The notes below the pieces were generated by a model, which made no database searches, was not told the origin of the DNA, and saw only the letters and a program-made list of their open reading frames with translations. A DNA stretch of 64,000 nt from Balamuthia mandrillaris. Lineage: Eukaryota. Shown one piece after another: positions 7,341 to 42,628 of the stretch. Location: assembly GCA_031835245.2 (NCBI GenBank), contig JAVKOQ020000089.1:62001-126000 (forward strand), written 5' to 3'. Position numbers and translations under genes: made by a program. How positions within the stretch are numbered: position 1 is the first letter of the stretch; the number at the start of each line of letters is the position of its first letter.

Positions 7341-9314
7341 ATGGAAGAAGAAAGAACGAGAAGAGAGGAGTTTGAAGCGTGGTTAGCCGCAAACGACATA
7401 CAGCATCCAAAGCTTTCGTTTCAAAACTTGCCAGGTAACACTTTTTTCCCCCCTCCACTCGCTGCCCGCTCACAATTTCGAAAATCAATCGCCAACAAAA
7501 AAAAGGATTTGGATTGTCGTTTGTTGCCGCAAAGGAGATCGAAGCGAATGAAGAGATAGGGACCATTCCGTTTCATGCCGTTCTCAGCGTGGAGGCCGCT
7601 CTCGCCTCCGAAGCGGTGGGCCGGCCGGTGATGTCCTTGGTGCAACGCGGCCGCCTTTTGTTCTCCACCACTCCCTCGGGCCCATTTTCCATCCTTTCTT
7701 CTGCTTCTTCTTCCGCCACTTCCCCTTCTTCCGCTAGCGGAGAAGAAGCACCGACCATCAGTCGTCGAACTCTCTTTCGTCTCTTTCTCATCGCTGAACG
7801 ATTTCACAAAGAGTTAGGCTCTTCTTCTTCTTCTTCTTCTTCAGCGGAAGGCGAAGAACAAAAGCCAAAAGACGGCTCCTGGAGGGCTTATCTTCGCTCG
7901 CTGCCACAAAAGTATCAGGACCCGTTTTGGTGGACGGAAGAGGAGGTCAACATGTTGAGAGGCTTCAACCTTCATGCGGCCGTTGTGGAGAGGAAACGCT
8001 TGTTGAGGAGCACCTTTGAGGGCGTTATGGCAGCTCTGAGCGATGCTTATCCGGAGATGTTTCCGCCTCATATCTTCACATGGTTTGCTCCATGTTACTG
8101 CTTTCTCTCTCTCTCTCTCTCCTGTATTCTTTCACCTTTCTTGCTTCTTCTTTCTGCTTTCTTCCTTCTGATGACGGCGATTTACAGGGAGAACTTCTTA
8201 TGGGCAAACTCAGTGTGTTCTTCCCGAGCCTTTCCACGCCAAATCGCGCTTCCTTCTCGCTTTACTTCGTTGTCCGATCGCACTTTGTTGTCTTCCTCTT
8301 CTTCGCCAGCCCTTCAACAACAAAAAGATAAAGAGAAAGAAACAGAACAAGAACAAGAAGAAGGTAACACTCTCAAAAGAAAACGAACCACGTCCGCAAC
8401 CTCTCCTGCATCTCTCGACCATACCAAAAAACTCAAATCTTCTTCGTCTAAACCCAAAACTACAAAAAACGCAGAAAATCCAGAAATCCAAATTCTCCAA
8501 AACAGAAGCATCGAAGAAATCTTTCAGGTGATGAGCCAAGAGGAAGAGTCAGACGAATGTTTGCTGCCTATGCTCGACATTGGCAACCACAAAAACGGAC
8601 AACGAATCAGTTGGATTAAAGACCTTCAGCAACAACGCCTCTCTTTTGTCTTTGGCGGACCGGGAAAAGTCACACCGGGAACACAAGTGTTCAACAACTA
8701 TGGGCCAAAAGGGGACGAAGAACTGATTCTCGGGTATGGCTTTTGCATTCCCGATAACACCAACAACACTGCTGCTGTGCTCATCGGACTTCCTTCCCTT
8801 CCTCCATCAAATAATGAAGAAGAAGGAATGGAAGAAGATCTGAGATGGATTATTTGGAAGAGAGAAATGATAGAACGAAGAGGACTTTCGTTGCGACATT
8901 ATCTGAACTTGCACCAACTACCATCAGACTTGTTGAGCGTTCTTCGTATCTTTGCAATGACAGAGCGGGAGCATTACTTCTACGAAGAGAAAGAAGAAGA
9001 AAAGAAAGAAAAAGAAAAAAAAGATGAGGACGACGCAGAATATTGCTTTCCGTTTTTAAATTATAGAAATGAGTTGGACGCTTTGAACACGTTGAAAGTG
9101 TTGATCGAGAGCAAATTGTTGCAAATGGAAACCGCTATTGTTTCTTCGGCCCCACCTGGACAACACCTGAAAAACGAAGAGAAGGAAAGCGAACTGACAA
9201 ATATGGCTGTTTTTCGGTCGAGAGCTGGATTACAAGCTGATAAGCAACTATTGGACTCTGGCAAATATGCGACAGAGCATCAAAGATTAGCCCTTTGCTA
9301 TAGAATCGGTATTC

Positions 9315-9350
<36 letters not shown>

Positions 9351-10872
9351 AACTAACAAACGTGAATGTATGTGTATTTTCAAAGGACAAAGAGAAGTTT
9401 TATTGAGGGCTAGGGAGCTTACAATACAACGTCAACAGAAGGTTGTGGCAAGCGCCAAGCTGCATCTTTCTTCATTAAAAGGAGAACATAACCCGTTCGC
9501 TTCTTCGTCCTCATCAGCGTCTTTCCTTTCTCCACTGATGTCTTCCAAACAACAACAAGCCTACCGCAAATGGCTTCTCGCCAACAACGAAGCTGCACTT
9601 TGCAATATCGACTTTTACGCATTTGAACACTCTTCTCAAGCTCTCACCACCCAAACTGTTTCTTCATCTGTGCAAATGTCTTCTCCTCTCTTAAAGTTTC
9701 CGCGAGCACTTCTCATCACTATTCGCACCGTTCAGCAATCAGAGTCCTTCTGCGATGTCTTATCGCTGGTGCAAGGCGTGGAGGAGGAGGACATTCTCGT
9801 CCTCTTTCTCATCCACGAACGAGCCAAAGGCAAACGTTCTCTTTGGTTCCCTTTCTTTTCTGCCCTTCCTCCTTTCGCCACTCCTCTTTTTTGGACAAAC
9901 AACAACGAAGAAGAAAACAACGGAGAGGATGAAGAGCTTGCAAAGCTGTTAGGACGAAGGAGCCAGGCCTATCTCGACACTTTGGCCAAACGACAACAAT
10001 TACAAGATGCTTTTAATGGAATAGTTCCAGCTTTGAGTGGAGCTCTTCCTCGACTCTTTCCGGAGGAGATATTCACTTGGGAGGCTTTCCTTTGGGCTAA
10101 CACTCTGTTAGAGACTCGCTCCTTCCAACTCAACGGGCAAACCATCGTCGTGCCTCTTGCTTGGCTTCCTCGTCATCTCCATCTTCCTCTCTACCATCAA
10201 GAGATTGCATTTGACACGGAAAACAACATGTGGATGGTTGTCACTTCATTGGCAGAGATGGAGAAGAGGGAGGAGTTCTTTTGGAGTTTTGACGGAGGAA
10301 AATCGTCCAACAATAGCGAATTGTTGGTGAAATACGGCGTTTTATCATCACAGATCTTCAACCCTTCTTTCGAGACCATCAAGTTTGACATAGATCCTAT
10401 TCGTTTAAAGGAGAGGAAAACACAAAAACAAACAGGAGCAGAAGAACGAGAGGAAGAAGAGGATGATGAATCGTGCATTTGTGCAGCTCATATGATGTTG
10501 TTGAGTCGAATGAATCTCGGATGGACACATTATATTGATGGAAATGGAAAGCTATGCAACAAACTGTTGGATTCACTTCGTGTTTGCTTTATGGACGACG
10601 ACGAAGCCATTTCCTTCCTTCAACACCTCCAAGGAGAAGAGGAGGAGGAGAAAAAGAGTGCAGAGGAGATGCGTTTCATGTTGCCAAAGGAAAAGGATGC
10701 AGTGATTATGCAGTTTCTCCGTGAAACGTTGGAGGAGATGCTGCAAGACTTGGCAGAGATAGAAGGTGAGGTGCAAAGCAGCAACAACAGGGCGATTGAA
10801 CAGCTGGCAAAGACCTACCGCGCAGGACAACGCGACATTATCTCTCGTTCTCTTGCCACTCTTTCTTCCTAA
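7341..10872 (+). CDS. Tandem SET / Rubisco-LSMT-type (SETD3/SETD4/Efm1-like) lysine methyltransferase with two SET modules
   Basis: WRAYLRSLP..P.WW, FLWANSVCSSRAF, LLPMLDIGNH, QVFNNYGPKGDEELILGYGF; second module FLWANTLLETRSF...NSELLVKYG; introns near 7435-7505, 8082-8187 and 9309-9385. Confidence 0.85.
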
Positions 10873-11024: not shown

Positions 11025-13018
11025 TCATTCAGGGAGAGCGTTGTTCTCCGCAGCGTACTTCCTGGCCTCAGCCACGATTTCCATCAGAGACTGTCCGCCA
11101 TTCTCGATGCAATTCAAGAACCGATGCTTGAGGAGGGTGTTGGCATCGGGCCTCCTGTCCGGGTCCTTCTCCAAACAAAGCGCCACAAACTCACGGAAAG
11201 GCTCAGACCATTTCTTTGGCTCCTTCAGGTCGGGAATGCCTTTTGTCGTGATCAAGAAAAGAGCCTTTATTTTTTTAACAGTTGAAAAAAGAGAATCAAT
11301 TAGTGAAATAAAAGAGAAGGAGAGTTAAAAAAGAGAAAGACATACTCGGAGAGGAGGGAAGTCCATGTAGGGAGGTTCTCCCTCAGCCATTTCCATGATC
11401 ATGATGCCAAGCGACCAGATATCGACCTTGGTGTCGTACTCCTGTCCACGGATGAGTTCGGGGGCCATCCAGTAAGGGGTACCCACGATGGTCTGACGCT
11501 TGCCCTTCTGTTGCGTCAGCTGCGCCGCATAACCGAAGTCAGCTGTTTTAAAAATAAGAGAAAGTTAACGTTAAAACACAATTTAGAGGGAGACAGAGCA
11601 AAAAAAAGCAAAGAGACACCGAACCAATTTTAACTTCGCCGAGAGAGCCCAACAAAATGTTATCGCTCTTGATGTCTCTGTGGATTCTGTGAAGACTGTG
11701 AATGTACCTCAGACCCTTGAGAGTCTTTTTTTTTTTGGTTTGGAAGATAACATTAGAATCACATAAACAGAAAAAAGCAAAGAAATAACGGACCTCTTGG
11801 CAGACCCAAGCGATCTGTGGTTCACTCATCTGACAATAGTCATACTGTTCAAGAATTTCGGTGAGGCAGCCGCCTCCCATGTATCCCATAGCAACCCACA
11901 GCTTATTGTCGGGCAACCGGAAGCTGTCGTAGTAGGGGACAATGTTCTCGTGGCGACTCTCCTTCATGATGTGGATTTCAGAGGTCAACAGTTTGATGTT
12001 TTGGGCGTTCAGTTCCATTTGTTTGATGGCCACTTGTTCTCCTGTCTCTACGTGCGTTCCCAGATACACCTTTCCAGCAGCTCTAGAGGGAGTGCGTGAG
12101 TATATGATCAAAGGGTGAGGATTCTAGAAGAGGAAAGATTGTGAACATACCCTTCTCCAATCTTTGTAAGGTTGAGATATATTTTGGTGGGATCTTCCTT
12201 ATTGACAAGGTCGTCTGTACAAGGCAGAAAAGATAGCAAAAGACGAACGGTCAGAATGCGGGAGAGAGAAGAGAGAAGAGTGAAGGGTAACGAGGAGTTG
12301 CAAAGAGAAGAATTGAGAGAAGAGAATAAAGGAAAGATATACGCACTCAAAGTAATTGTTTTTTCAGCGGGGAGCGGCAGGTTCTTAAGTTCCTCGGCAA
12401 GCTCGTCGCTAGGGGGGACGCTGCGGGCCTCATTGATAACCTTTTTCTGTGTAAATTCTAGAACGTCCAACACGGCGTCCGGGTTGGAAAGAGCTTCCTC
12501 TTTGGAAATGTTGCCTTGAAGCATAGCCTCCCATTCTTCAGGCAAGCCCTTTTATTTGTTTATTTGTGCAAGTCAGAGAGAAGGAAAAAAAGGAAACAAT
12601 AACAGAGAACAAAAAAGAAGAAGAGGAGAACAGATAACAGAGGTAGAAAATTAACAAAAGAGAGGGCGAGATAGAAGAAGAAAAAGAAGAGGAAAGAAAG
12701 GTACCCTGAAACCGCTCTTGGCATTAAAATCAACATGGATCTGATGTTTGATGGCGTAAGGAGAACTTACGCTGTAGGAAGGTTCTTCAGACCCCTTTCC
12801 TATTAAGTGAAGGAAGAAAGAGAGATTAAGTTACTTGAAAAGGCCCTTATTTGACACAAGAGACAAAACTAACAGGCCTGCGAACCAAAAATAATAATAG
12901 AGAAGATGAAGGAAAAAAAAAGAGTAGAAATAGCTGATCAATGCAGAAAGAGAAGAAGAAGAAAGATCAGATACGTACGGCCGGCGGTCTTCTTTCCTTT
13001 GCCGAAAAATTTCATCAT
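11025..13018 (-). CDS. p21-activated (PAK/STE20) Ser/Thr kinase with N-terminal CRIB/PBD, multi-exon
   Basis: [19 protein letters not shown]...GLPEEW; kinase motifs [48 protein letters not shown]. Confidence 0.93.
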
Positions 13019-13608
13019 TTTGGGGCAACTCTTTTTTTTAAAAACAAAAAAATAAAACTACAACTACAACAAAAAATAAACTAAGGAAAAAAAAAAGAGG
13101 GATTTGTTCGGCCGCTACTTGAATCGAACCTCCGTGCTATTTTTTTTCTTTCCCTTTTCTTCCGGGTCCTCCTTCCTCCTTCCTCCTTTCTTTTTATTCT
13201 TTTCTTTGTTGGGTGAAACCCCTTTTTTTTTTTTCTTTTCCTTTTTATTATTTTTCTTTTTCCCACTGAACCCTCGCTTTGCTCCCTTTTCATTTTTTTC
13301 TTCCGTTTGTCAGCAGCGGGTTTCCTCAAAGCTTTGCGTAAGGAAAAGGGAGAACCTCAGAGCTCCCGAATATTTGTCCAGTGGGCTACTGAGGGTGGAA
13401 AGATAGGAGTAGGTGGACGGAAATGGAATCCTCCCTTTGCAAACCCTGGGTAAGGTATCATTAGCCGTTAAGCCTCGGGAAATGGAAAGAAACTCAACAG
13501 CCAATGGCCGAAGAGGAAGGCAATTGAATGACGAAATTTCAGAGTGAATGTCTTATTCGAGTCGACACGATCAGAAGTAGATACAAAGAAAAGAAGGAAA
13601 AAGAAAGC

Positions 13609-15288
13609 TCAGAACCAGAAGGGGTTGCCTTCTGGGGGAGGAGCGCTGTTGAACGAAGAAGGCTCGCGCCGCGGTGCACGCTCTTGCGGATATGGGTCTA
13701 TGGCAGAGGAATGAGATGGTGGAGAAGAAGAAGAGCCATCGGACCGGAACGAAGAAGAACCATCGCAGTCGATGGCATCGGCTGTTAGACGCCCCAGGTC
13801 CGTTGAAAACGAGGGAGGCGAAGCGAATCTATTGATAGAATCAGAAGGAGAAGAAGAGGGACAAGGAGATGAATATTCTTCCATGGCAGAAAGCGAAGTC
13901 AGCGGAGCGACCGCGAAGACGGAGCCATCATGAAAACGAACGTCCTTTGGCAAGGGCACCAAGGACCGAGGAGCTACCCGCCACGGCTTTGTGCCCAGTG
14001 ATTGTTTGCTCTGCTCGATGGCCACGCTCTTTTGCACCGGGAGAGCGCTCTTTACTTGGACGGAGAAGCAGAGAGGTCCTCCTCCTTCCTCAACATCAAA
14101 GTAGGCCGTTGCCGTGGTGTGGCACATCAGCCAAGTGCCATCCTTTGTTGCGATGGTACACGTGTCGCGCAAGGTAATCTGGCAGTCACGCATGTTGCCC
14201 CATTCGCCCATCAGCTTGTCGTACATCAGCTCCATGTCTTCAAGCAGTTCTTCGGGTGCAAGACAGCGGGAACTCCGGCCCAACAGCTCTCGCTGTTTGT
14301 TGTGGTCAGGTAAGGAAAAAAAAAAAAGGACGAGAACATAGTGGGAGAGAAGGACAGAGGAGCAAGCGAGAAAGAATAGTGACCACTGGAAAAGAGAACC
14401 AGAGGTGAGGAGTAGGTACAATACCTGTGAATAACCGGAAAGCTTCAAAAAGGCGGAGTTCAGGGCCACAACGTTCCCTCCGTTGGAATCGAAAGCAAAG
14501 GGCCGTAGCAAGGCCCACGGCTCCTCCAACTGGTTGTCCACGAAACATTCCAAGAGGTGTGCTTTGGAGAAATACGGCATCGAAGAGTAACTTGGCCTTC
14601 TTGTGTTGGCGGCCATCGGAGGTAGCCACAGGTTGATGATGTTGTTGGAGGAAGGGAATGCAGAAAAGGAAGAGGAGGAGGAAGAAGAAAATATATCAAA
14701 AGGGAGTGCTGAATCCTCTGGCTCTCCTGCATGATTATCATGGCAAGGACAAGCCGTGGAGATATGTGGGTGTGTTATCTGTTGTGGAGCTTCGGCAAGA
14801 GCAGATGCGTTATTGATGTTGCTGAAAGGAGGTAAGAGCGCTCGTTTCAAGCCACATGCCATGCAAAAGGCCGCGTCTGGTAAAGCAAACTCTACTCCAC
14901 ACCTGTAACAATACTGAGCAAGCAGTGATGGCTCCTCCTCCATTTGTGCTGAAGGCAAGGAATAAGAAGACGCAGCATAGGTAGTGAAAGGGTATTGGCC
15001 CTCCTCCTCTCCAACTACGGGTAATGCAGACATGGATATACGACGAGAAGAAGAAGGAGAATAAAGAAGAGAAGTGCTCATTGTTGGATTCGATACCACA
15101 GAAGACGGAAGGTTTCTGCCGTGTTTGCGGGGTCGACCTCGTTTCCGGGTGGAGGGAAGAGGGTCACAGCATAGATGAATGCGGTCGAGGTGGCGGCAGC
15201 GTCCGCAGGGCCTTCCTTTGTCGCATGCTTGGTGAGCATCCCTGCATGGCGCACACGCTTTGGCGTTACCAGTCTCGTTCTGGTCCAT
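13609..15288 (-). CDS. Zn2Cys6 / AT-hook / Zn-ribbon / PAS transcription factor, copy 1
   Basis: ACAPCRDAHQACDKGRPCGRCRHLDRIHLC; RKRGRPRK; CYRC-x11-CMAC; PAS NSAFLKLSGYSQ|RELLG; intron 14293-14424. Confidence 0.85.
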   Translation of the reverse strand: MDQNETGNAKACAPCRDAHQACDKGRPCGRCRHLDRIHLCCDPLPSTRKRGRPRKHGRNLPSSVVSNPTMSTSLLYSPSSSRRISMSALPVVGEEEGQYPFTTYAASSYSLPSAQMEEEPSLLAQYCYRCGVEFALPDAAFCMACGLKRALLPPFSNINNASALAEAPQQITHPHISTACPCHDNHAGEPEDSALPFDIFSSSSSSSFSAFPSSNNIINLWLPPMAANTRRPSYSSMPYFSKAHLLECFVDNQLEEPWALLRPFAFDSNGGNVVALNSAFLKLSGYSQVLYLLLTSGSLFQWSLFFLACSSVLLSHYVLVLFFFSLPDHNKQRELLGRSSRCLAPEELLEDMELMYDKLMGEWGNMRDCQITLRDTCTIATKDGTWLMCHTTATAYFDVEEGGGPLCFSVQVKSALPVQKSVAIEQSKQSLGTKPWRVAPRSLVPLPKDVRFHDGSVFAVAPLTSLSAMEEYSSPCPSSSPSDSINRFASPPSFSTDLGRLTADAIDCDGSSSFRSDGSSSSPPSHSSAIDPYPQERAPRREPSSFNSAPPPEGNPFWF

Positions 15289-15645
15289 GGGGATAAAAAT
15301 CTCCCTCTCCTGTAGCACACGTCTACGTTGATTTGCTTTGTTGTGCTTTGGTAACGTTTTTGATTTGTTGTTTTTCGTTTTTCTCAGTGTTCTCACCTTT
15401 TTCCCATCACTGGTCTCCTGTGCCGGGTGTTTATGACCAACAGGAGAACAATGCCGGTTGGATGGAAGAGAGGGTGAGTTCCTGGAAAAAATTGGGAACG
15501 GGACATTTTAATGCTCCGATAGGTGTTAAAAAGCTGTCCATTAATGGTGCTTATTAAGTCATATATACCAGCATTAAACACCAATAGAAGGGCACTAAAC
15601 ATGAACGTACCCGATTGGCGTAAACTAACACGCAATCCAAGAGGG

Positions 15646-17485
15646 TTAGTTGAAAGAAGAGTTGCCGCAGGGAAGGTTGCTACCGCTGACGAAGGAAGAA
15701 GAGGGCTCGCAACGTGATACGCAATCTTGCGAATAACGCTCCCCAGAAGCAGAGGCATGCGGTGTACCTGACAAGCAGGACGAAGAAAACGGTCCACCAT
15801 CAACTTCATCAGCTGTGAGTAAGTCCACATGCGTGGTTGTGGAGTTGTGACAATCAGAAGGAAACAGCGTTGAAAACAAGGTCGGCGAAGCAGCTCGATG
15901 ATGGGCAAAATAAGAAGATGAAAGATCGATAGAAGGAAGAGGGAAGTCCTCAACCGTTGTGGAAAGCAAAGTCAATGGCGCATGTGAGAAGACGGAGCCT
16001 TCATGGAAACGAACATCGCTTGGCAGGACCACCAGGGATCGAGGAAGCACCCGCCACGACTCGGTATTCATCCGTATTCGCTGCTCAATGGTCACGCTCT
16101 TTTGCACCGAGAGAGCGCTCCTCACTTGGACGGAGAAGCAGAGAGGTCCTCCTCCCTCCTCAACACCAAAGTAGGCCGTTGCCGTGGTGTGGCACATCAG
16201 CCAGGTGCCATCCTTTGTTGCGATGGTGCACGTGTCTTGGGATATGACCTGGCAGTTGCGCATGTTGTTGCCCAGTTCAAGCATCATCTTGTCGTATGTC
16301 TGCTCTATGTCCTCAAGCAGTTCTTCGGGGATAAGAAAGCGAGAGCTTCGGCCTAACAGTTCCTTCTTTTATTAGGAAGAGAGAAGAGTGAGGAGCGAAC
16401 AAAGGAAGAAGTAAAATGAAAAGCATAGTAGCAGAGTGAATCAGATGAAAACAAGCCGAGAGAAGCAAAGAACGAAATAGTGAGAAAAGTGAGGAGCAGG
16501 AATAACGTGCCTGAGAATAACCGGACAGATTCAAAAAGGCCGAGTTGAGAGCGATGATACTGCCTCCGTTGGAATCCAAAGCGAAGGGTCTGATTAAGGC
16601 CCACGGTTCTAACAGTTGGTTATCAATATAACATTCCAAGAGATGCGCTTTAGAGAGATGCATTCTGGAAGCGCTACAGGAAGAAGAAGGTGAAGAGAAA
16701 GACGAATGAGCGGGCTTTCTTGTGTTGGCAGCCATCGGAGGAAGCCACAACTTTATGATTACATTACTATTTTTGTCGCTGTTGGAAGAAGAAGCAGAAG
16801 AAGCGGGACCGAACATATCGAAAAGAAGTGACGACCAGTCCAAACCGACATCCTCCGACTCTTCTCCATTGTTGTCACGTCTTGGTTTCGTTGTTGTCAT
16901 TGTTGTTTCGTTGGTACCACGCTGCTTTCGTGCTCTCTTTTGTGGAAGACGTTCACCAACAGAAGGAGAGTCGTTGATAGAGTTATACGGCAGAAAGAGG
17001 CCTCGTTTCAGGCCGCACGCCATGCAAAATGCAGCCTCTGGATACACAAACTCCACCCCGCAGCGATGACAGTACTGAGCAAGCAGTGGCGGCGGTGTTT
17101 CTCCCTCCCTTGTGAGCTCAGAAGGCATCAGAGAGGAAGCAGAAGCAGAAGCAGAAGGAGAAGAAGAAGGGGAAGGAGAAGAAAAAGAAGTAGCAGATGA
17201 AGCAAGAAAGGAATGTTTTACAAGGTTAGAAGAAGAGCAAGACGAAGAAGAAAGAGGAGGGGGGAAGGAGTTCGAGTAGGGACGTTGAGGAAGGGTAGAA
17301 ACGTTCGAGTGTTGCAGAGACGAAAAAGTGTTATTGCGTGTGGATGGTCGGCCTCTTCTGCGCGTTGGAGGGTCACGACAGAGGTGCGTTCGATCGAGGT
17401 GACGACAGCGTCCGCAGGGTCTTCCTTTATCGCACGCCTGGTGGGCCTCCCTACACGGAGCACACGCTTTGCCACTCTCGTTCAT
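15646..17485 (-). CDS. Zn2Cys6 / AT-hook / Zn-ribbon / PAS transcription factor, copy 2 (GC-AG intron)
   Basis: Same motifs as copy 1; donor CAG|GCACGT at 16510; exon 2 ELLGRSSRFLIPEE. Confidence 0.85.
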
Positions 17486-17792
17486 CTTTCCTTTGGTCAC
17501 CCTCTCGTTTTGGGCGGTGAATGTTTTTTTTTGTTTTTGCTTTCGTGTACTCACGCAAACCAACCCGTTTTTGCACTCACGCACTACTTTTCCGAGAAGA
17601 ATATGCGCCAGGAAGGGTTGCTGAAACGCAGCCTCGGTGGACCAGGAACAGGCCAGTCGTGAGGTGGTAACCGCTGCTACCACCTCTCCCTACCTCTTGC
17701 GCCATTCCCCGTCACGGCCCCTTGCGGTGCTTTGTACTCATGTCGACACACGACGTGCTGGTGTTTTTTTTTTTGGGGTTTTTGTTTTCGCT

Positions 17793-19581
17793 TCAAAAGT
17801 CGAAAAGAGTAGCGGAAGCGGTAGCAGCGGCGGCGGCAGGGAAGGAGTTGGTGGCGAAACAAGGGGAGAAGGGGGAAGAGGGCTCGCAGGGCGATGCAGG
17901 GTCTTGTGAATGCCGCTCCAGCGCGGAAGAAGGAGCGGGCCTGGAGGAAGAAGAACTGCTGCCATCGATGCCAGCACCGCCGCGAGGGGAAGGAAAAGAA
18001 AAAGAAGAATGCAACTCGATAGAAGGAAGATCAGGGAGCGCCTCATCTTCCATAGAAAGCGAGGTCACAGGCGCGGATGAGAAGATGGAGCCTTCGTGGA
18101 AGCAAGCATCCTCAGGCAAGGCCAGGGTAGATTGCGGGGCTATCCTCCACGAGTTGTAACTCTTCTTTTTGCTCCATTCGATGGCAGTGTTTCTTTTCGC
18201 TGGAACGGCGCTGGTCACTTGGACGGAGATGCAAACCGGCAGCCCGTCGCTGCCGAGGTAGAACACGCTTTGCGCCGTGGACATCAACCAGTTACCGTTC
18301 CTTGCGGCAATGGTACAGGGTTTATCATGCCACGCAATCTGGCAGTTGCTCAGGCCGCGCAGTTGAGCCAGAGTCTTTGTGTACGACAGCTCTGTGTCTT
18401 CATATAGTTCTTCGGGGATGAGACAGTGCATACTACGCCCTAGGAGTTCAGACTGTTTGGCGAAAGCGAGAAGCAAAGATAAAGGAAATAAGAGAAGACG
18501 GACGAAGAGAGAACATAAAGCAGAGAGAGAGAGAGAGAGAGAGAGAGAGTGCCTGTGAATAACCATATAGCTTCGAGAAGGCCAAATTAACGGCAATGAT
18601 GCTGTTCCCGGAAGCCTCAAGCGCAAAGGGCCGGACCAAAACCCAAGGTCCTTTCATACGGCTGTCCACAAAACATGCCATCACATGTGCTGTGGGGATA
18701 TGTGGTATCAAAGCCTTTCTGGGGTTGGTTATAATCGGAGGAAGCCATAGCGTGATGACTCCTCTATTGCTGGAGGAAGACGACGGAGAAGAAGCAGAGG
18801 CAGAAGAAGAGGCGGAGGTAGCATAAGAAGAAGAAAAGAGATCCAAAGGAGGTGTCATCAGTTCTGGATCAGTGGACGAAGGCGAGGAAGAATAAAAGCC
18901 TGAGGAAAAAGGAGGAGAACTTGTGTTCTGTTGTGCCGCTGGCGAGTAATCGTCCACTGCGTTAGTGTTTCTTGTCGTCACCTCTTGCCTTCCGGAAAAG
19001 TCGTTGTGAGTTAGAAAGTGGCCTCGTTTCAAGCCGCATGCCATGCAGAAAGCGGCATCCGCATGCACAAACTCCACTCCACACCGATAACAGTATTGAG
19101 CAAGTAGTGCTGGCGGCCCTCCTCCTTCTTCTTCCTCTTCCTCCTCCTCGTCGTCAAAAAAAAAAGTCGAAGAAGAGACTAGGTTCTGTATGGCCTCCTC
19201 TTCAAACAATGGCAAAGAGGACGGTGAACTGCTTTGAGCTGAGGAAGCCAAAGAAGGATGAGGACGAGGGACTGCAGCAGGGAGAAGAGCTGGATACGGC
19301 TGCAACCGAGAAGCAAGGCGAGAGCGTTGAGCCTTAGGAGTATTTAGCACAGACTTTGCGGGGTCCATGCTGTTTTGTTTGTCGTTTTTGTTTTTGATGG
19401 GCCGTCCTCGTTTACGAAACGGTGGGTCACGGCAGAGGTGAGTGCGTTTGAGGTGGCGGCAGCGCCCGCAGGGCCGTCCTTTGTCGCACGCCTGATGGGC
19501 CTCCCTGCACGGCGCACACGCCTTGGCGTTACCTTCTGGCCTACCACTCTCCCTCGTACGCTCCTTCTCACGTTGGTCCAT
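17793..19581 (-). CDS. Zn2Cys6 / AT-hook / Zn-ribbon / PAS transcription factor, copy 3 (GC-AG intron)
   Basis: Same motifs; donor CAG|GCACTC at 18552; exon 2 SELLGRSMHCLIPEE. Confidence 0.85.
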
Positions 19582-19872
19582 TGCGTAGTTTTTCCTGCTG
19601 TCACTATCGTCCTTGGGAGCTCAGCTGAACACGCAAGGCTGTTCTGAGAAGAACACAAAAAAACGACTGCCACGACGAGTTGGTCGTGCATGCATCCTCT
19701 GCCTTCATTCTTCCAGGAACATCGCACATTATTCTCACCAATAGGGGAAATGTCTTGATACTAAAAAAAATGTCCGATGAGGCAGGGGGATGGACTTCCT
19801 GTCCAGACCCAGGTCCCCAGCAGGAAACACGAGCCGTAAGTGTTTTACAAATGTTATATTCAATGTGGACAG

Positions 19873-19928
<56 letters not shown>

Positions 19929-19933
19929 CAAGT

Positions 19934-22100
19934 TCAATCGAAAGCATCCGCAAAAGAGTTGCTATAACAAGGAGGGTGAGTGCCGTTAAAGGGAGAAGAG
20001 GGCTCACAAAGCGATGCGCACTCTTGTGAAAACCGTTCTTGTTCTTGGGAGGAAGAAGATAATGAGGAAGAAGAAGATGAAGGAGCATCTAACCAATCAA
20101 TAGTAGGGGTAGCAAGCAAGTCCAAAAATGGTGTGGTGGTATGAGAAGAAGCACATGATGAAGGAGAATTGGACGACGTTTCCGTGGTTGAAAGTAAAGG
20201 TGAAAAGAGTAGATTGGAAGAACTGGAAGAAGAATAGGGTTTGATAGAAGTAGAAGAATGCAAAGAAGAGGAAGATGAAGGAACAGGAAACTCGGTTACT
20301 GTTGACAGTGACGTGACTGGAGCCGAGGAGAAGAAGGAGCCCTCATGGAAGCGAACGTCCTTGGGCAAGGCCAGCGTTGACTGAGGCGCTACTCTCAACG
20401 AATCGATGCCGGCTTGTTTACTCCACTCGATGGCCACGCTCTTCTGTACCGGGATGGCGCTCTTCATCTGGACGGAGATGCAGATGGGTCCTCCGCCCTC
20501 GGCTCCAAAGTAGAAGGTGCCGACGGCCTGAGACATCAACCACCGGCCATCCTTGGCAGTGATTGTGCAGGTATCGTGAGACAGCACCTGGCAGTTGCGC
20601 ATGTTGCGGAACTCGGCCAGCATCTTGTCGTACATCATTTCAGTAATCTCGAAGAGTTCCTCGGGGATGAGACGGCGGAAGCTGCGCCCTAAAAGTTCTC
20701 TCTGTTGTGCATTTTTATTTCCCGTTAGAAAGAGAAGAAAAAAAGAAAAAGGATTTGAAGATAACAATTGGAACGCGATGTTGTTTCTTTTGAAAGGAAG
20801 TAACAGAAGAGGAGACAAAATGAGAAGAAAAATACCTGTGAGTAACCAAACATCTTTACAAAGGCAGAGTTAACAGCAACTATACTGCCTCCAGTAGAAT
20901 CGAAAGCAAAGGGCCGGATCAACGCCCACGGCTCTGTTAGCTGGTTGTCCACAAAACACTCCAAGAGGTGCGCTTTGGAGAAATAGGGTACCGCGGCATA
21001 ACCGGGCTTTCTGGTGTTGGCTGCCATCGGAGGAAGCCACAGTTTAATGATTCCGTTTTTAGTGTTGTTATTATTGTTGTTGGTGTTGCTGCTGCTACTA
21101 TTGGAGGAGGAAGAGAAAGAAGAAGGAAAGAGATCAAAGGGAAGAGCTAAGAGGTCCAAATCGGCGCAAGCAAAAGACAAAGGAGAGGAGGAACAGGACT
21201 CGAGGAAGAAAGAGAAGGAGAGCTTGTGTTCGGGTGCGACGTTGACGAATCCTCTGACTCTGTTCCAAGCATATTATAGACGTTACTGGAATAGTTGTTC
21301 TTGTTGTGGTTTTTTGTGAATGTTGTGGCCGTTCTTGTTACAGTCACTTGATGCTTTCTCTTCTTCGTTGGACTTTCACTTCCTGCCACATCATAAGAAG
21401 AAGCAGGTGTGCCGTTCTGGTGGTGGTTGTAGTTGCCTTCATCGTTGTTGCCAAAAGAAGGAAGAACGCTTCGTTTCAGGCCGCACGACATGCAGAAAGA
21501 GGCCTCTCGATGGAGAAACTCAACTCCGCAGCGATGACAGTAGAGAGCAAGCAGCGGAGCTTCTCGGCCTTCTGCTGCCTTCTCCCTCTCCATAACCACT
21601 GACGACGGGGAAAGAGAAGAGGCAAAATGTTGTGGAGGTTCAGAGAGTGGGATAGCGGAGGAGGAGGAGGGAGAGGAGGAGGAAAACGTTCCATTGGAAG
21701 CAGAAGAAATGGAGGAAGGGGGAAAGCGATATGGAGAGGAAGGAGGTTGAGAAGGAGGGAGAGGAGCGCGAAGAGGAGAATGAGCAGTGGAAGGAAGCAG
21801 ATTTGTTGGAAATGGGTACGGCTGAGAAACGCGAGAAAGAGTTGGTTGAAGATGATGATGTGTTGCCGCTAGCAAGGGAGTAGTGCTGTGGTGGAGGTGG
21901 TTGTCGTTCTTGTCTTTCGTGGGGCGCCCTCTTCGGCGCAAAGGGGGGCGAGGGTCACGGCAGAGGTGAGTGCGGTTGAGGTGGCGGCAGCGCCCGCAGG
22001 GCCTCCCTTTGTCGCACGCCTGGTGGGCCTCTCGACATGGCGCACACGCCTTGGGGCCGCTATCCTGCTGCTGGAACTTCTTCCTTTCACGGTCGGTCAT
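19934..22100 (-). CDS. Zn2Cys6 / AT-hook / Zn-ribbon / PAS transcription factor, copy 4; exon 1 broken across two frames near 21150-21310
   Basis: The zinc-cluster ORF (21147-22100) and the PAS-start ORF (20725-21180) are in different frames; donor at 20835; exon 2 RELLGRSFRRLIPEE. Confidence 0.7.
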
Positions 22101-22651
22101 CCCTTCTCCTCTCGCTCTCGTCGGAGAGGAAGAAGCGGCACAAAGAAAAAACGCACAAGCTTCAGGAAGGAAGGAACACGAACAAAAAATCTGTGATCCG
22201 TCGCTCCCTCCTGGTGAGGCTGCTTATTTTTTTTAAATTTTTTTTGATTATTTTCCTGGTTCTCGATTTTTTCTCTTGAACTATTGTTGATGCAGAGCGC
22301 AACCGTTGGAGAATGGAGGACAGAAGGGTTGCCACCGGGGAAGAAGACGGAATGCTGGCCACTATGCGGGTGTTGTGTTGGCAGCGAAAAGTACCGGGCT
22401 CCTGTCGGAAGGCTTTCCATTTGCCCGTTTCCCTGGCCACCGTCTAGATTGGCTCCTGTTGGAGAATTTTATAGAAATTTTAAGGAAAACAAACATCGGG
22501 AATATTTTGGGCCAATGGGTATATTTTTTTGCTTTGAAATAGGCCGACGACGTTCCAGGGTCTCGCCCTTGTTCTTTGGCTTAGGGTGACAAAAGTGGTG
22601 TGTTTTTTACATCAATAATCAAAAACTATGTTCAAAATATGTGCATGATGG

Positions 22652-24447
22652 TTACAGGTTGAAAGGGGCATAGGCAGGAGGTTGTTCGGCGTGATTGAAA
22701 TAAGAGGGCTCGCAAACCAATGGGCAACAATCTTGTTGAGAATACCGGTCAATCGAGGAAGCACAGGAGGAAGAAGCAGGGAAGGGTAGCGGTGCGTCCA
22801 ACCATGCACCACTTCCGTAATCAACGGTAGCAGAGGTAAGCAGGTCCAAAAATGATGTTGTTGAGTAAGTGGACAAAGGATCAAGCAAAGAGGAAGCAGA
22901 AGCTGGCGGAAAATTTTCTTCTGCCTCCTTCTCTGCCATCACTTTGGCAAGCGAGGTGACGGGAGCAGCTGGGAAGAAGGAGCCCTCATGAAAGCGAACA
23001 TCCCTAGGCAAGGCCACGGCCTTTCTGGGTGACACTCGCCGAGCGGAGGAGGGCTCCAAGCTATCGGCCTGTCTGCTCCACTCTATGGCGATGCTCTTGT
23101 GCACGGGAATGGCATTCTTCATCTTGATGGCGATGAAGAGGGGGTTCCCTCCCTCAGCCCCAAAGTAAAAGGTGGCCAGGGCATGGGACATCACCCAGGT
23201 GCCATCCTTGGCTGCAATGGTGCATGGGTCACGAGACGTCATCTGACAGTTGTGCATGTCCGCCCACTCGGTCCTCATCTTGCTGATCCTTAGCTCCGTC
23301 GCCTCGAGGAGCTCCTCCGGAATGAGAGAGCGGAAGTTGCGGCCCAGAAGCTCATGCTGTGTTTGTTGAAGGTAAGCACGAGAAAGGAGAGAGAGAGAGA
23401 GAGAGAAACGAGAGAAAATACCTGAGTATAGCCAGAAATCTTCAAAAAAGCGGAGTTTACAGCGACAACACTGCTCCCTTCAGAACCAAAGACAAAGGGC
23501 CTAATCAAGGCCCAAGGCTCCGTCAGCTGGTTGTCCACAAAACATTCCAACATGTGGGCTGGAGAGAGATGATGCGCTATCGACGTAGAACAGCCGGGCT
23601 TCTTTGTGTTGGTGGTTATCACTGGAGTAAGCCACAGCTTGATGATCCCATTTTTGTTGCTTAAAGGAGAGGAAGACGAAGGAGCGCATGGCAATGGAGC
23701 AAAAGAGGAAGAAGGACAACAACAACACGAAGAAGGCGAAGAAAACGAAGAAGAGAAGCTGTCCACAGGAAGGGCCAACGTGTCGAATTCCGAGCACGCT
23801 TGGGTGAGTGGAGAAGAGGACCCAGAGCTAGAAGCCGCGGTTGCTGAGTCCTCCGACTCTTCTCCATTTGAAGTTTGTCGACGTTGTTGTGTTATTGTGG
23901 CCTCGTTGCTTCGCCTTCTCTTCTTTGGAGGGCTTCCAACAGACGGAGGAGAGTGGTATTCCGTCGAATGGAGGCCTCGTCGCAAGCCACACTCCTTGCA
24001 AAAAGCGATCTCTGGTCGAACAAACTCCGCTCCGCAGCGATGACAGTATGGAGCAGCCGACAGAGGCTCCTCTTCTGGTGTGATGGCAGGAGAAGAGGGC
24101 GATGACGCGGGAGAAGAGGAAGGGATGGAAGAAGAAGGCGGCGGCGGGTGATGAATAGGGATAGTGCAAGTTACTACCTTTGGGCAGGCGCGGGGAGCAG
24201 GCGAAGAAACGCTCGAAAGTGGGGCTGGTGCTGGGGATGGCTGTAGCGGGCCACTCGCTGTTACTGCGCTGGCTTGCTTGGAGGGGCGACCCCGCTTGCG
24301 TAACGGGGGGCGAGGGTCACGGCAGAGGTGAGTGCGGTTGAGGTGGCGGCAGCGCCCGCAGGGCCTTCCTTTGTCGCACGCCTGGTGGGCCTCTCTGCAA
24401 GGCGCGCACGCCTTGGGAGGTTCCTGCTGCTTGTCCTTGTCGTTCAT
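22652..24447 (-). CDS. Zn2Cys6 / AT-hook / Zn-ribbon / PAS transcription factor, copy 5
   Basis: Same motifs; donor at 23421; exon 2 HELLGRNFRSLIPEE. Confidence 0.85.
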
Positions 24448-25109
24448 GGTGTGTGTGCAGCCACTACTTTCACAAAAAACTGAAAAAGAAAAAGAAAGAG
24501 GCCAAAGCAGTGCTTCTATTAACTGGGATGGTTTGGGTTTTTACGCAATGAGTTTTCAGCGGGCCAACAGACCGGAACAAACAGAAAAAGAAAACCAGTG
24601 CTGTTGTCGTAATGGGCAGGGAAGCATGTGCTGATTTGATCATTTTATGCCAGGAATTGGGGACATTTAGCCTAATTCGATGGGCTGGGGAATATCCCCC
24701 ATTGGTACATTCGGCCGAAATTCAACAAAATCGGAAGGGAAATATATTCAAACCAATGGGCGTATTTCCGGGATTAAAAAACTGTCCGAGTTGTAGCGGG
24801 AGTCGGGAAGCTTCGTAGTGTGGATAAAATAAAAGTTCATCTTCCCGCAGGGCTACCCTTCCCTAATTCGCCGTGGACGAGAGCGACGCTTTGGGGGGTC
24901 CTTCTGTTCCTTCTTCATTCCCGATGACCGGCAGTTGCTCTGTTTGAAGCTCTGCTCTTGGAGGCTAGGTTACGGCAAAGGATCGATCGCAGCTATTATC
25001 CTTTTGGGATGTATGTGTCTGGTACTCCACCTAATTGTTCAACGAGATCATCTTATGCTTGTGTCCTTTGTAGTTGTTGTGTTTTATCCCCGTTCTCTGT
25101 TGGTTATCG

Positions 25110-25978
25110 TTATCCAAACCATCTAAAAAGTACATAGGTAGGTAAGAGTAGGTTAGCATAGTTGAAATAGAAGGAGAAGTAACGGACGTACAACGGATAG
25201 GAGCTGCTGTGTTGAGAAACAGGTTCGCAGAGAGGTGCACTATCCCGTGAAAAAGGTTCCATTGAAACCGCAGACGACGAAAAAGACGGAGAAGTGAAAG
25301 ATGCCGGAGGAGGTGAAGGCGGAATAGGAGAAGAAAAAGAACAAGAAGAAGACGAAGAAGATGCGTGTGAATCCAACCGGGAAGAAGAATATCTACAGTC
25401 AACAGTTGGAGCAGAGAGCATGTCTAAAAGCGCATCCGTGGAGCAATCACTCGTGGAGATGATAGAGGGAGAAGGCGGTAGAGGCATCTGTTTCTCCTGA
25501 GTGGATGAATAGGGGATAGCCGAAGAACATGCAGGGCCGCCAGTAACATCCTCCACCGATGCTACCGGAGCTGTAGGAAAGAAAGAGCCTTCGTGGAAAC
25601 GAACATCCCTTGGCAAGGCCACAACGGAGCGAAGAGACATCTTCCACGTCACAGTCCTCTCTTGTCGCCCCCACTGAATGGCCAAGTTCCTTTGCACCGC
25701 ATTCGTGTTCTTCATTCGAAGAGCGATGAAGAGTAGGCCTCCATCAGGGCCAAAGTAGAAAGTGCTGTCTGTGTGGGACATCAACCAGGTACCGTCCCTT
25801 GCTATAATGGTGCACGTGTCTTGCACGCTGAGCTGGCAGTTGCGCAGTTCTGACCATTGGGTCATTCTCTTGCTGTATGCTCGCTGTAATGCTCCGATAG
25901 TTTCGTCCGGAATGAGAGAGCTGAAGCAGAGACCTAACAGATCTCTCTTTTTTGTTTTTGCAAACGAGTAAACAACAG

Positions 25979-26013
<35 letters not shown>

Positions 26014-39047: not shown

Positions 39048-39420
39048 TTCGTTCGTGTTTGCCTTTTTGCTGTGTTGTTACGAAAAAGAAAAAAGAAGCA
39101 TTGGGTTTGCTACTTTATTTCGTATTGATTTTCGTGCAGTTCACTTCACTTCCCTGCGCGCTGGCTTTCCTTCTTTCGTTGTATGTTTAATGAAACGACA
39201 GCAGGGAGACCGGTACCCATTGGTCCGCTACCCCTCTTTTTGCTTCGATTTCCGCACGTTTTTTAGGCAACGGGCTATTAAATTGGAATCATTCCTACTG
39301 GTGCGGTCATTTAAACACATATTAGGCTATTATAATTATGTCTAATTATAATAGCCTAATTCATTGACCAATCGGTACATTGCAAATATGTCGACATTAT
39401 TCACCTTTTTTTACTTGTGA

Positions 39421-41418
39421 TCACAGAGGGTAAGAGAAGGAGTTACGTCTGGTGTTTGTGGGAGAGGGCTCGCATAGCGATTCATCCAGAAGCGAAAACC
39501 GATCCACAGAGGAAGAAGCTGAGGAAGAGGAAGGAGAGACGTGCGATGATCCATCCGACCAACAAGAAGAGCCTCCACCGTCAAATGCCGGGGAAGTAAG
39601 CAGATCCAAATACGTTGTGGAGGAAAAATCAACCGTTGAGAAGAAGGAAGGAGAAGTAGGATGCTGCATAGCAGAAGAAGAATAGGGTTGGATGGCAGAA
39701 GAATGTACAGTATTAACATCAACAGGCGCTCCCTCCTTCATGACAAGGGAGGACAGTGGGGCTGCTGGGAAGAAGGTACCCTCGTGGAAACGAACGTCTT
39801 TGGGCAAGGCCACGGCGGTTTGAGGGGCAACCTTCCAAGACTCGATGCTCGCGTGTTTGGCCCACTCCACAGCAACTCCTCTTTGCACCGGGACGGCACT
39901 CTTCATTTGGACAGCGATGCACATGAGCCCTCCATCAGGGCCATAGTAGCACCGGCATAGGGAATGCGACATCAACCAGGTGCCATCCTTTGTGGTCATG
40001 GGACACGTGTCGTGGGACAGAACCTGACAGTTGCTCACCACTCCCAGTTGGGTCATCATCCTCTCGTACATTAGTTCCATGATTTCGAAGAGCTCTTCAG
40101 GAACGAGAAGGCGGAAGCAGCGACCCAATAACTCATTCTTGTAATGTGAAGTAGTCAGAAAAGAGGAAGAACAGAGAGAGGAGGAAAAAAGAAGAAAAGG
40201 GTGAAACAGAACAACGATCAAAAAAGGAGTGGAATATGACGAAGGGAACAATACCTGTGAATAACCGTACGTCTTCAAAAAGGCTGAGTTAACAGCCACA
40301 ATGCTGCCTCCTTCGGCGTCAAGGGCAAAGGGTCGCATCAGCGCCCACGGTTCTGTCAGCTCGTTATCCACATAACATTCCAAGAGATGTGCTTTGGAGA
40401 AATAGGGTATCGAGGCTATACTGGGTTTTCTGGTGTTGGCTGCCATTGGAGGAAGCCACAGTTTGAACGTTCCATTTTTGGATGAGGTAGGAGACGGCGA
40501 TGATGAAGAAATGGTAGTGAAAGGATGATCAAAGATGTCTAATTCAGAACTCGTGAATGACAACGGAGAGGAGGAAAAGCAAGGGCTCGAGGAGGAAGGA
40601 GAAGAAGAGGAAGGAGAACTTGTGGTCGGTTGCGATGGTGGCGAATCCTCTGACTCTGCTCCCTTCACATGCTTACTATTATTTACATTGTTGTGGTTGT
40701 TGTTGTAGCTTTGTGTCGATGCTGCTGTTGCTGTTGTTACAGCGTCGTGCTTTCTCTTCTTTGTAGGGCTTCCATTGGGGTCATTCGCGCTGCCATAACG
40801 ATGGAAGAGAGCTCGCTTCAAGCCACATGACATGCAAAACACGGCCTCCTGCAGCACAAATTCCACCCCGCAGCGGTGACAAAATTGAGCAGGCAGCAGT
40901 TGTGCTGGTGATGCTTCTTCCGTCTCCTCACTCACAAATTCCGGTGAAGAAGAAGGAGAAGAGAAGAGGCGTTGCTGTCGTGTCTGGTCTTCAACCAAAG
41001 AAAAAGAAGGCGGAACAAACGAAGAGGAAGGAACGTTAGGAAAGGGTGTGGAAGAAGCTTGTGTGCGTTGGGCGGAAGCGAAGGAAGAAGGAGGGGGAGC
41101 ATAGTGAGGAATAGCAGGAGAAGAGTGAGCGAAAGGAATGCCAGTTGTTGGAAAGAGATGAGCATGAGGACGTGGAGGAGGAAAAATGCGAGCATGCAGT
41201 GGTGGAGGCGTATACTTTCCAGAAGGAGAAGTGTTGCTGTCTTGGTTTTTGGGTTTGGGAGGTCGCCCTCGTTTGCGCAACGGCGGAAGAGGGTCACGGC
41301 AGAGGTGAGTGCGGTCGAGGTGGCGGCAGCGCCCGCAAGGCCTTCCTTTGTCGCACGCCTGGTGGGCCTCCCTGCACGGCGCACATGCTTTGTGCTCTTG
41401 CTTTTTGTTCTCGTTCAT
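39421..41418 (-). CDS. Zn2Cys6 / AT-hook / Zn-ribbon / PAS transcription factor, copy 11
   Basis: Same motifs; donor at 40254; exon 2 NELLGRCFRLLVPEE. Confidence 0.87.
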   Translation of the reverse strand: MNENKKQEHKACAPCREAHQACDKGRPCGRCRHLDRTHLCRDPLPPLRKRGRPPKPKNQDSNTSPSGKYTPPPLHARIFPPPRPHAHLFPTTGIPFAHSSPAIPHYAPPPSSFASAQRTQASSTPFPNVPSSSFVPPSFSLVEDQTRQQRLFSSPSSSPEFVSEETEEASPAQLLPAQFCHRCGVEFVLQEAVFCMSCGLKRALFHRYGSANDPNGSPTKKRKHDAVTTATAASTQSYNNNHNNVNNSKHVKGAESEDSPPSQPTTSSPSSSSPSSSSPCFSSSPLSFTSSELDIFDHPFTTISSSSPSPTSSKNGTFKLWLPPMAANTRKPSIASIPYFSKAHLLECYVDNELTEPWALMRPFALDAEGGSIVAVNSAFLKTYGYSQVLFPSSYSTPFLIVVLFHPFLLFSSSLCSSSFLTTSHYKNELLGRCFRLLVPEELFEIMELMYERMMTQLGVVSNCQVLSHDTCPMTTKDGTWLMSHSLCRCYYGPDGGLMCIAVQMKSAVPVQRGVAVEWAKHASIESWKVAPQTAVALPKDVRFHEGTFFPAAPLSSLVMKEGAPVDVNTVHSSAIQPYSSSAMQHPTSPSFFSTVDFSSTTYLDLLTSPAFDGGGSSCWSDGSSHVSPSSSSASSSVDRFSLLDESLCEPSPTNTRRNSFSYPL

Positions 41419-41875
41419 CTCTCTTTTGTTTATATTTCTCAGTTGATGTATTCTAGGCTTCTCAGTCAGTCTTGCGTATGAATTGTCCTCTTACGTCGTC
41501 GTTTCTCTCTTTACAGCGCTTGGAGCGTAGCACAGCGGCTAGCAGCAGTAGGAGACGTTTGTCTGCAGGTCGGCGCGTTGAAAGAAACATTTGGGTTTGG
41601 TGTGCATTTCCTTGTCCTTCCTTTTCCGTACGGATTAATTTCCACTCATCGGAACATTTTCGATTGGTGCACGCTCATGAAATTCGATGGAATCCGCATC
41701 GGACATTATTTTGAACCAATCGCCTGCTTTCTTTTGCATAAATGTCCGACGTCCTCCACGCACAGGATAAAGACGCCCGTTGGGCCATGTCAGTTTAGAA
41801 GCATGTTTATACCTGCACTACCATCACCATCATCTCCATTTTTAAAAAAAAAACCTCATCTGGTCCTGTGTTTTT

Positions 41876-42628
41876 TCAGAAATAGAATCGGCCGATGCTC
41901 TCTGCCACACAGGCGGGCTTGTCGTGGCCCTCCCGCTCAAAGGTCCAGAGGGTGACCGTCTGCACGCCGCCCGGCACGTCCGTGATTTCCTGCAGGGTGG
42001 TGCGCAGGCGGACGTTGCTGCCAGCCGGCACGGGGGAGATGAAGCGCACCTTGTTGAGGCCGTAGTTGACCGCCATCTTGGCGCCCTTTATCTTGGGGTT
42101 GGCTTCGCCTGCCAACACTGGCCCCAAAGAGAGCGTGAGGAAGCCATGAGCTACCGGTCTAAAAGAAGAAGAGAAGAGAGAGGAAAGAAGAAAAAGGTTA
42201 AGATATCTTTTTGGCAACCAAAATGAAAAATGAAAGAAAGGAAGAAAAAAAGACCCTTTGAATGGGGACTCCTTCTTGGCTCGCTCTACGTCCACATGGA
42301 TCCATTGCCTGTCTTCTGTGCACTCCTACAAAACGTATTTTTTGTTTTGTTTGATATGAGTGAGTGAATATTTTGTTGTGGAAAAAAAAAAAGAGCATAG
42401 ACACACCGCAAAAGCATTGATTCTGTCTTGAGCTACTTGGTGCCAGCTGCTCACGCCCAACTCTTTGCCGACCATGCCACGAAGCTCGCTCAGGTCGATC
42501 TCTCTTTTGGCCGCGCCTGCAGTGGCATTGGTGCCCACTACCGAGCTATCCTCGCGAGGAAGCGAGCTTCGCAAGTGTGCTTCCAGGCGGGCCAACCTCC
42601 TTCCGGCCACAACTGCTTTGGACTCCAT
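41876..42628 (-). CDS. MaoC-family (hot-dog fold) dehydratase with an N-terminal PTS2-like signal, 3 exons
   Basis: VGKELGVSSW..V.QDRINAFA|ECTEDRQWIHVDVERAKKESPFKG|PVAHGFLTLSL...VNYGLNKVRFISPVPAGS...KPACVAE; RLARLEAHL near the N-terminus. Confidence 0.9.

Follow-up and report, generated by a model that had tools for sequence, protein, structure and literature searches.

A tandem array of eleven Zn2Cys6-PAS paralogues in Balamuthia mandrillaris, with a predicted target site in six of its own promoters

The locus described here raises the question of what an amoeba might do with eleven similar transcription factors lying side by side, i.e., whether they read one DNA site or several, and what distinguishes one copy from the next. 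We analyzed a stretch of 64,000 nucleotides from the genome of Balamuthia mandrillaris (contig JAVKOQ020000089.1, positions 62,001 to 126,000 of the forward strand; hereafter, the window), which contains at 13609-41418, on the minus strand, an array of 11 paralogues (g1 to g11) with a Zn2Cys6 cluster and a PAS domain. Outside fungi, Zn2Cys6 factors are spread patchily (PMC5415576), with 22 in Acanthamoeba compared with 3 in Dictyostelium (PMC4053784) and 71 in Naegleria (PMC5611559). We consider it somewhat probable that the copies have one common DNA specificity, provided by the cluster and an AT-hook-like motif, that their PAS domains supply diversified inputs, and that they regulate themselves or one another through a promoter module.

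A six-frame scan of the window found exactly 11 clusters of the form Cx2Cx6Cx5Cx2Cx8C, which lie between 15166 and 41385, every one on the minus strand; this agrees with the co-oriented paralogues described in the initial annotation. A phase-0 intron between the Q and the x of GY[ST]QxELLG splits the PAS domain in 11/11 genes; the single intron at one position that had been claimed is therefore present in every copy, with a second one in g6. The intron ends are GC-AG in g9 and g10, and the spliced products have 515 to 686 amino acid residues. The full architecture, with hook and ribbon, is found in nine copies, and g5 and g6 lack both; furthermore, g8 is frameshifted, and an unrelated open reading frame (ORF) lies between g2 and g3. 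The genes are as follows.

39421..41418, minus strand: g1, 626 residues; Zn2Cys6, RKRGRP, zinc ribbon, basic motif resembling a nuclear localization signal, extended PAS, Ser-rich tail; intron 40138-40254; identical to database protein P0002 (QOT17_010386)
37142..39047, minus strand: g2, 607 residues, full architecture; intron 37892-37973
35439..36974, minus strand: unrelated single-exon ORF, 511 residues, interrupting the array
32740..35111, minus strand: g3, 686 residues, full architecture; intron 33655-33965, repeat-rich
30175..32287, minus strand: g4, 656 residues, full architecture; intron 30991-31132, joint in run X1
27744..29406, minus strand: g5, 528 residues, no RKRGRP or ribbon; intron 28431-28506; equals P0006
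25031..27146, minus strand: g6, 637 residues, no RKRGRP or ribbon, most divergent cluster; introns 25947-26087 and 25123-25191, both joints in X1; P0005
22652..24447, minus strand: g7, 576 residues, full architecture; intron 23357-23421; equals P0003; reads present
19934..22100, minus strand: g8, full architecture, one-base frameshift near 21190-21200; intron 20702-20835, joint in X1 and X5
17793..19581, minus strand: g9, 562 residues, full architecture; predicted GC-AG intron 18453-18552
15646..17485, minus strand: g10, 564 residues, full architecture; GC-AG intron 16366-16510, joint CT..GC in X1
13609..15288, minus strand: g11, 515 residues, full architecture; intron 14293-14424, joint in X1, X5 (three reads), and X6 (one read); P0152

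For g1, g5, g7, and g11, the spliced models are identical to B. mandrillaris proteins in the database, and the database matches of g1, g5, g6, g7, g8, g10, and g11 bear that species name, with locus tags QOT17_010374-010386. The database models miss the GC-AG introns, so that P0004 (g9) is truncated and P0153 (g10) is mis-spliced, and g8 was split by NCBI into P0008 and P0001. Two further proteins, P0007 and P0009, lie next to each other on another contig of the assembly (9321 bases) and are 94-96% identical to g11 and g10; they probably represent another haplotype.

The array is real and partly expressed. Reads were mapped over 13000-32600, which covers eight of the 11 genes (g4 to g11). In contigs of X1, a run that is RNA by guess yet skips introns exactly, splice joints were present for five of these eight genes, i.e., g4, g6 (two introns), g8, g10, and g11, and raw RNA reads also carry joints of g11 (three and one reads) and g8 (one read); g5, g7, and g9 have none among the joints listed. 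The depth is low, with 227 and 189 reads from approximately 3% and 5% of the runs, of which approximately 40% are only partly aligned. Contigs of X3 bridge the g8-g7, g7-g6, and g5-g4 junctions, and silent sites of the PAS region differ between copies by 0.44 to 0.73 per site; therefore, the array is neither collapsed nor a false duplication, which sustains its initial description. Over 21016-21979, one contig of X3 has an extra letter and may be an intact allele of g8. These results bear on a very improbable alternative, in which the array is a mostly redundant product of birth and death with one or two working copies and the rest decaying. It would fit the frameshift of g8 and the loss of hook and ribbon from g5 and g6, where the read depth is very low; on the other hand, 10/11 reading frames have stayed open although silent sites are near saturation, the ratio of nonsynonymous to synonymous substitution rates (dN/dS) is 0.11-0.38, and five copies have splice joints.

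The DNA-binding end of the proteins is nearly uniform. The Cx5 and Cx8 spacings, the His, and the bridge residues Arg and Asp are found in 11/11 copies; as isolated domains, two of the 11 clusters pass the Pfam cut-off of PF00172 and the others score 13-21 bits. The cluster is followed in nine copies by [RK][RK]RGRP (RKRGRP or RRRGRP) and a CxxC-x11-CxxC ribbon. The RGRP core of the AT-hook family PF02178 is accordingly present in 9/11, with Pfam matches in three copies at 14-16 bits, under the cut-off of 17.4, and all nine ribbons match ribbon profiles (PF13240/PF13248/DZR) at E values of 4e-5 to 2e-3, none of them passing the cut-off. The ribbon could, as a guess, be a protein-contact module. 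Pro, Ser, and Gly make up 25-47% of the 60 residues after the cluster, a composition unlike that of a coiled coil; thus, by composition, a Gal4-type coiled coil was not found there, nor was the Fungal_trans middle domain (PF04082) in the Pfam scans. A motif of the form P-x-K-K/R-R-K, resembling a nuclear localization signal, stands after the ribbon position in eight copies (g1, g3-g8, and g10), and an LDLL-type motif is found in the tail of seven.

Identity is 0.89 in the cluster (rough dN/dS of 0.11), 0.70 in the ribbon (0.19), 0.61 in the first half of the PAS domain (0.17), and 0.42 in the second half (0.38), and the earlier contrast between a constant DNA-binding module and varied PAS modules is borne out by these values. 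Because the DNA-binding end is near-constant while the PAS varies, different signals are likely fed into one shared DNA site. Silent identity is higher in the cluster than in the PAS in 47/55 pairs, and g7 and g8 share 62 identical bases, so that the cluster may have undergone gene conversion. On the other hand, the G+C content at third codon positions is higher in the cluster (0.75 versus 0.61), the excess over regional codon use is similar (0.70 versus 0.57 and 0.54 versus 0.35), and only one of the 55 pairs passes the Bonferroni threshold.

The best zinc-cluster chain in the PDB is that of Pho7, a weak match (E = 0.13-0.34). Schizosaccharomyces pombe Pho7 binds TCG(G/C)(A/T)xxTTxAA as a monomer, with its basic tail in the minor groove and a bridge between Arg306 and Asp320 (PMC6265462). 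The array proteins share with Pho7 (PDB accession numbers 6e33 and 6o19) the Cx5 middle loop, the bridge residues in RPC and C.D, the basic tail, and the lack of a coiled coil; the bridge Arg and Asp are invariant in 12/12 alignment rows and in all 56 relatives outside Balamuthia that are described below. Unlike the array proteins, Pho7 has a Cx6C last loop, and no similarity of the PAS to Pho7 was seen. The promoters of the array contain a motif that resembles the Pho7 site TCG(G/C)(A/T)xxTT. The pattern TCGG-N3-(A/T)TT occurs eight times in 7/11 promoters (shuffle mean, 1.6), i.e., 1.8 per kb versus 0.17 elsewhere, and TCGGACATT is the same as the first nine bases of the Pho7 site at tgp1. 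In an unbiased count of 8-mers, GGACATTT was found in five of the 11 promoters, a level that the best 8-mer reached in 5/200 shuffles. With a CCAAT box, the motif forms a module, TCGG..TT-N3-35-ATTGG, which lies on the gene's strand in the promoters of g1, g3, g4, g7, g8, and g9 and is absent from the other 59.6 kb of the window; in 2000 shuffles, it was found in at most three promoters. An inverted CCGAT or GCGAT follows the module in five promoters. The six modules are as follows.

41695..41749, minus strand: g1 promoter; TCGGACATTT, ATTGG, inverted AATGTCCGAT
35262..35294, minus strand: g3 promoter; TCGGACATTT, ATTGG
32575..32593, minus strand: g4 promoter; TCGGATCTTT, ATTGG
24730..24789, minus strand: g7 promoter; TCGGACAGTTT, ATTGG, CCGAT
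22493..22547, minus strand: g8 promoter; TCGGCCTATTT, ATTGG, ATATTCCCGAT
19720..19777, minus strand: g9 promoter; TCGGACATTT, ATTGG, AATGTGCGAT

A candidate target site, predicted from sequence, thus lies in six of the array's own promoters, and autoregulation is probable. In the proposed mechanism, TCGG would be read in the major groove by the cluster, and the RKRGRP tail would enter the AT-rich minor groove in the manner of the Pho7 basic tail; no coiled coil of the Gal4 type would be involved. It is likely that all copies read one CGG-plus-AT-rich site and that each responds, through its diverged PAS domain, to a signal or partner of its own. The PAS, carried on a flexible linker of 180-300 residues, would control activity according to whether a small molecule or a partner is bound, with activation supplied by the Ser-rich tail. 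If the TCGG..TT and CCAAT module of the six promoters is the family's own site, both auto- and cross-regulation would follow.

The C-terminal domain had been proposed to be a PAS domain. Among nine database proteins, P0001 (with four PAS families) and P0007 pass a PAS cut-off of Pfam, and the other seven score below it. Residues 216-427 of g11 were modeled with AlphaFold2 from an alignment in which 17 Balamuthia rows were joined by 14 PAS stretches from elsewhere; the model has a mean predicted local distance difference test score (pLDDT) of 84 and a predicted template modeling score of 0.82, and it matches PAS domains (Foldseek E = 2e-6; Z-score = 10.0, RMSD [root mean square deviation] = 2.8, number aligned = 111); a single-sequence fold of P0001 gave a pLDDT of 34. 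As modeled, the domain is a PAS fold with PAC strands. The core resembles those of the PAS sensors FixL, DosP, NifL, LOV, and AhR PAS-B (Z-scores of 8.5-10, 11-23% identity), whereas approximately 40 residues before and 50 residues after it, forming extra strands and a helix, are mostly uncovered by the matches listed. In these flanks, the conserved segments LWL, LECFVD, the IEW helix, and RV.P..V.LP.D are confidently modeled as added strands and a helix, and the FHEGS end has low confidence. The motif LP.D..FH[ED]G..F..[AP]P, whose conservation had also been noted, is present in 11/11 copies. The ESM Atlas returned look-alikes of White-collar PAS/GATA proteins at up to 0.91 and nothing more specific. 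Readings as a LOV photoreceptor or a heme PAS were rejected, as their signatures were not found.

The copies may be one-component sensors, although no ligand or cofactor signature was found in them. A distinctly less probable alternative is that the PAS serves only dimerization or the choice of a partner and binds no ligand, so that the array would control one regulon combinatorially or by dosage and drift would largely account for the PAS divergence. The same absence of a cofactor signature is consistent with this alternative, as are the CCAAT boxes flanked by inverted CGG-like half-sites in g1, g7, g8, and g9 and the proposal that the PAS of fungal AcuK/AcuM mediates heterodimers (PMC12719309). 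Against it, the most variable part of the domain is the long helix with the strands that follow, whereas the strands added at its flanks show greater conservation. In PAS domains, the long helix and the following strands line the pocket.

Several observations weigh against one shared site served by varied PAS inputs. The sequence TCGGACATTT was first spotted by eye upstream of several copies, and the composite patterns were fitted after the data had been seen. The module is missing in the promoters of g5, g6, and g10 and is only partial in those of g2 and g11; moreover, the promoters, being paralogous, have a common origin, and the module could be bound by another factor. Shared ancestry accounts for the origin of the module but hardly for its survival beside near-saturated silent sites. 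The base-reading residues Asn299 and Lys300 of Pho7 are replaced by His and Gln in the array. The dN/dS values are below 0.4 in all six blocks but rough, with dS near saturation, and the divergence of the PAS may reflect relaxed constraint. The PAS fold is not a fully independent result because the alignment of the model held the 14 outside PAS stretches. The LOV signature GxNCxFL or GxNCRFLQ with its reactive Cys is found in 0/11 copies, and their long PAS helix has no conserved His in the column aligned by eye to what we take to be the heme histidine of FixL. The read depth is lowest over g5 and g6, with almost no raw reads, and X1 keeps the window sequence over the break in g8, which is broken in the assembly.

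In a search with a full-length profile against 1.84 billion representatives, 3696 matches were obtained at E<=0.001. The best 150 of these comprise eight Balamuthia proteins, all encoded by genes of this array, 141 multi-PAS proteins, which are bacterial where the organism is given (5 of the 141 looked up), and one Willaertia magna protein with the cluster, KKRGR, and a weak PAS match. Further Balamuthia loci are possible because the multi-PAS proteins filled the best 150, from which g2, g3, and g4 are also absent. A profile of the cluster and hook, built from the 11 paralogues and the W. magna protein, matched 62 of 7981 scored candidates, and 56 of these are from outside Balamuthia, including fungi from chytrids to Dikarya, two Willaertia proteins (KAL9644176/KAL9644189), and one Pharyngomonas kirbyi protein. 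Directly after the cluster, [KR][KR]RGR is found in 56/56, a count that indicates spread and not frequency because the motif was in the query, and the spacing Cx2Cx6Cx5Cx2Cx8C is found in 55/56. By the features with which we define this Zn2Cys6-KKRGRP(-PAS) subfamily, the array agrees in spacing, His before the third Cys, and Arg and Asp of RPC..C.D in 11/11 copies and in the hook in 9/11. The hook and ribbon had been regarded as additions to a fungal design; since the nearest relatives carry KKRGRP, the AT-hook-like motif is shared, whereas the CxxC-x11-CxxC ribbon was found in 0/56 relatives. The relatives also have no detectable flanking LWL/LECFVD or FHEGS segments; the zinc ribbon and the additional strands flanking the PAS were thus observed in Balamuthia alone.

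A PAS family matches at E<=0.01 in 16 of the 55 relatives scanned. The PAS of the fungal relatives has a long insertion, unlike that of Balamuthia, and in a profile comparison, the domain downstream of the cluster in fungi is a weak match to the Balamuthia PAS (E = 1.2e-4, probability of 55%); the match of the Willaertia PAS was not significant (probability of 1%). In a tree of the cluster, the 11 copies fall on one side of a long branch (99/96), but its 49 columns are too few to decide origin or transfer, and verified Ert1, AcuK, Rds2, or AcuM sequences were not included. A non-fungal host and a lineage-specific tandem expansion are supported, as initially proposed. An 11-gene array was not seen in the KKRGRP relatives, whose genomic context was not fetched. 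The Willaertia genes of P0151 and P0155 (Zn2Cys6-KKRGR-PAS) have locus tags 12 apart on contigs of equal length; perhaps local duplication took place there too.

The fungal Ert1/AcuK, Rds2/AcuM, and Gsm1 proteins (Aod2/Aod5 and Pas2) have the same N-terminal Zn2Cys6 and C-terminal PAS and bind CGG-type sites; their members form heterodimers on CCG-N7-CCG sites and control gluconeogenesis (PMC12719309; for AcuK/AcuM and Pas2 biology, see also PMC8092316). The array could be an expanded set of orthologues of Ert1/AcuK or Rds2/AcuM, controlling gluconeogenesis or respiration as heterodimers on such sites, but we regard this as improbable. The shared domain order, on which the initial likeness to Ert1/AcuK rested, and the automatic name "Transcription activator of gluconeogenesis ERT1" of 3 of the 10 relatives looked up are in its favor; weak matches to PF24990, the PAS of ERT1/acuK, in two of nine proteins point the same way, yet they reach 13.6 and 12.1 bits (E = 0.083 and 0.25) compared with a cut-off of 27, the other seven proteins have none, and 0/55 nearest cluster relatives match PF24990 at E<=0.01. 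In addition, the PAS of the array scores best with generic multi-PAS proteins. The array differs further from these fungal regulators in its ribbon and extended PAS and in having 11 genes in tandem, where regulators of the Ert1/AcuK type are encoded by two or three genes and work as heterodimers (PMC12719309). The nearest kin are therefore an uncharacterized, hook-bearing Zn2Cys6-KKRGRP subfamily of fungi and heterolobosean protists, many members of which have a PAS, rather than Ert1/AcuK proper, as far as the sequences indicate.

Several other features lie in or beside the array. The 511-residue ORF at 35439-36974 has no Pfam family at E<=1, and its N terminus presumably resembles an F-box. 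A multi-exon kinase gene (11028-13017, minus strand), whose product we take from its motifs to be Ste20/PAK-like, lies just downstream of g11, and the gene upstream of g1 (41876-42628, minus strand) presumably encodes a MaoC-like dehydratase. Long ORFs at 7439-10869 (plus strand) seem to us to resemble a SET-domain methyltransferase of the Rubisco-LSMT type, possibly with two such domains. A second local duplication at 54336-57476 (minus strand) consists of two membrane-protein-like ORFs with a near-identical shared stretch.

The main text of the Balamuthia genome paper (PMC10471605) does not mention zinc, transcription factor, PAS, or tandem, and one supplement is likewise without relevant terms. 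The available part of PMC6234864 does not name a fungal KKRGRP subfamily, and a literature search, in which subscription papers were thinly covered, found no description of the array or of this subfamily. Thus, the array is apparently undescribed, while its parts and domain order were already known; the module of TCGG..TT and CCAAT in six promoters is new here.

Eleven natural PAS variants that share one DNA-binding sequence, together with a predicted site, make the array a compact test case, and its relatives suggest that a Zn2Cys6-hook-PAS subfamily distinct from Ert1/AcuK is old and has so far gone unstudied. A bolder reading, which we hold only tentatively and think doubtful, is that of a self-regulating receptor repertoire: eleven ligand-sensing PAS variants acting on one Pho7-like site beside CCAAT, in which selection and gene conversion would keep the DNA-binding segment constant. 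B. mandrillaris is a brain-infecting amoeba whose infection is almost always fatal (PMC10471605), and zinc-cluster and PAS domains are both discussed as drug targets in fungi (PMC12719309). If the receptor repertoire were true, it would provide the first target site for the Zn2Cys6-KKRGRP-PAS subfamily of fungi, Amoebozoa, and Heterolobosea and would place the zinc-cluster/PAS design early in eukaryotes.

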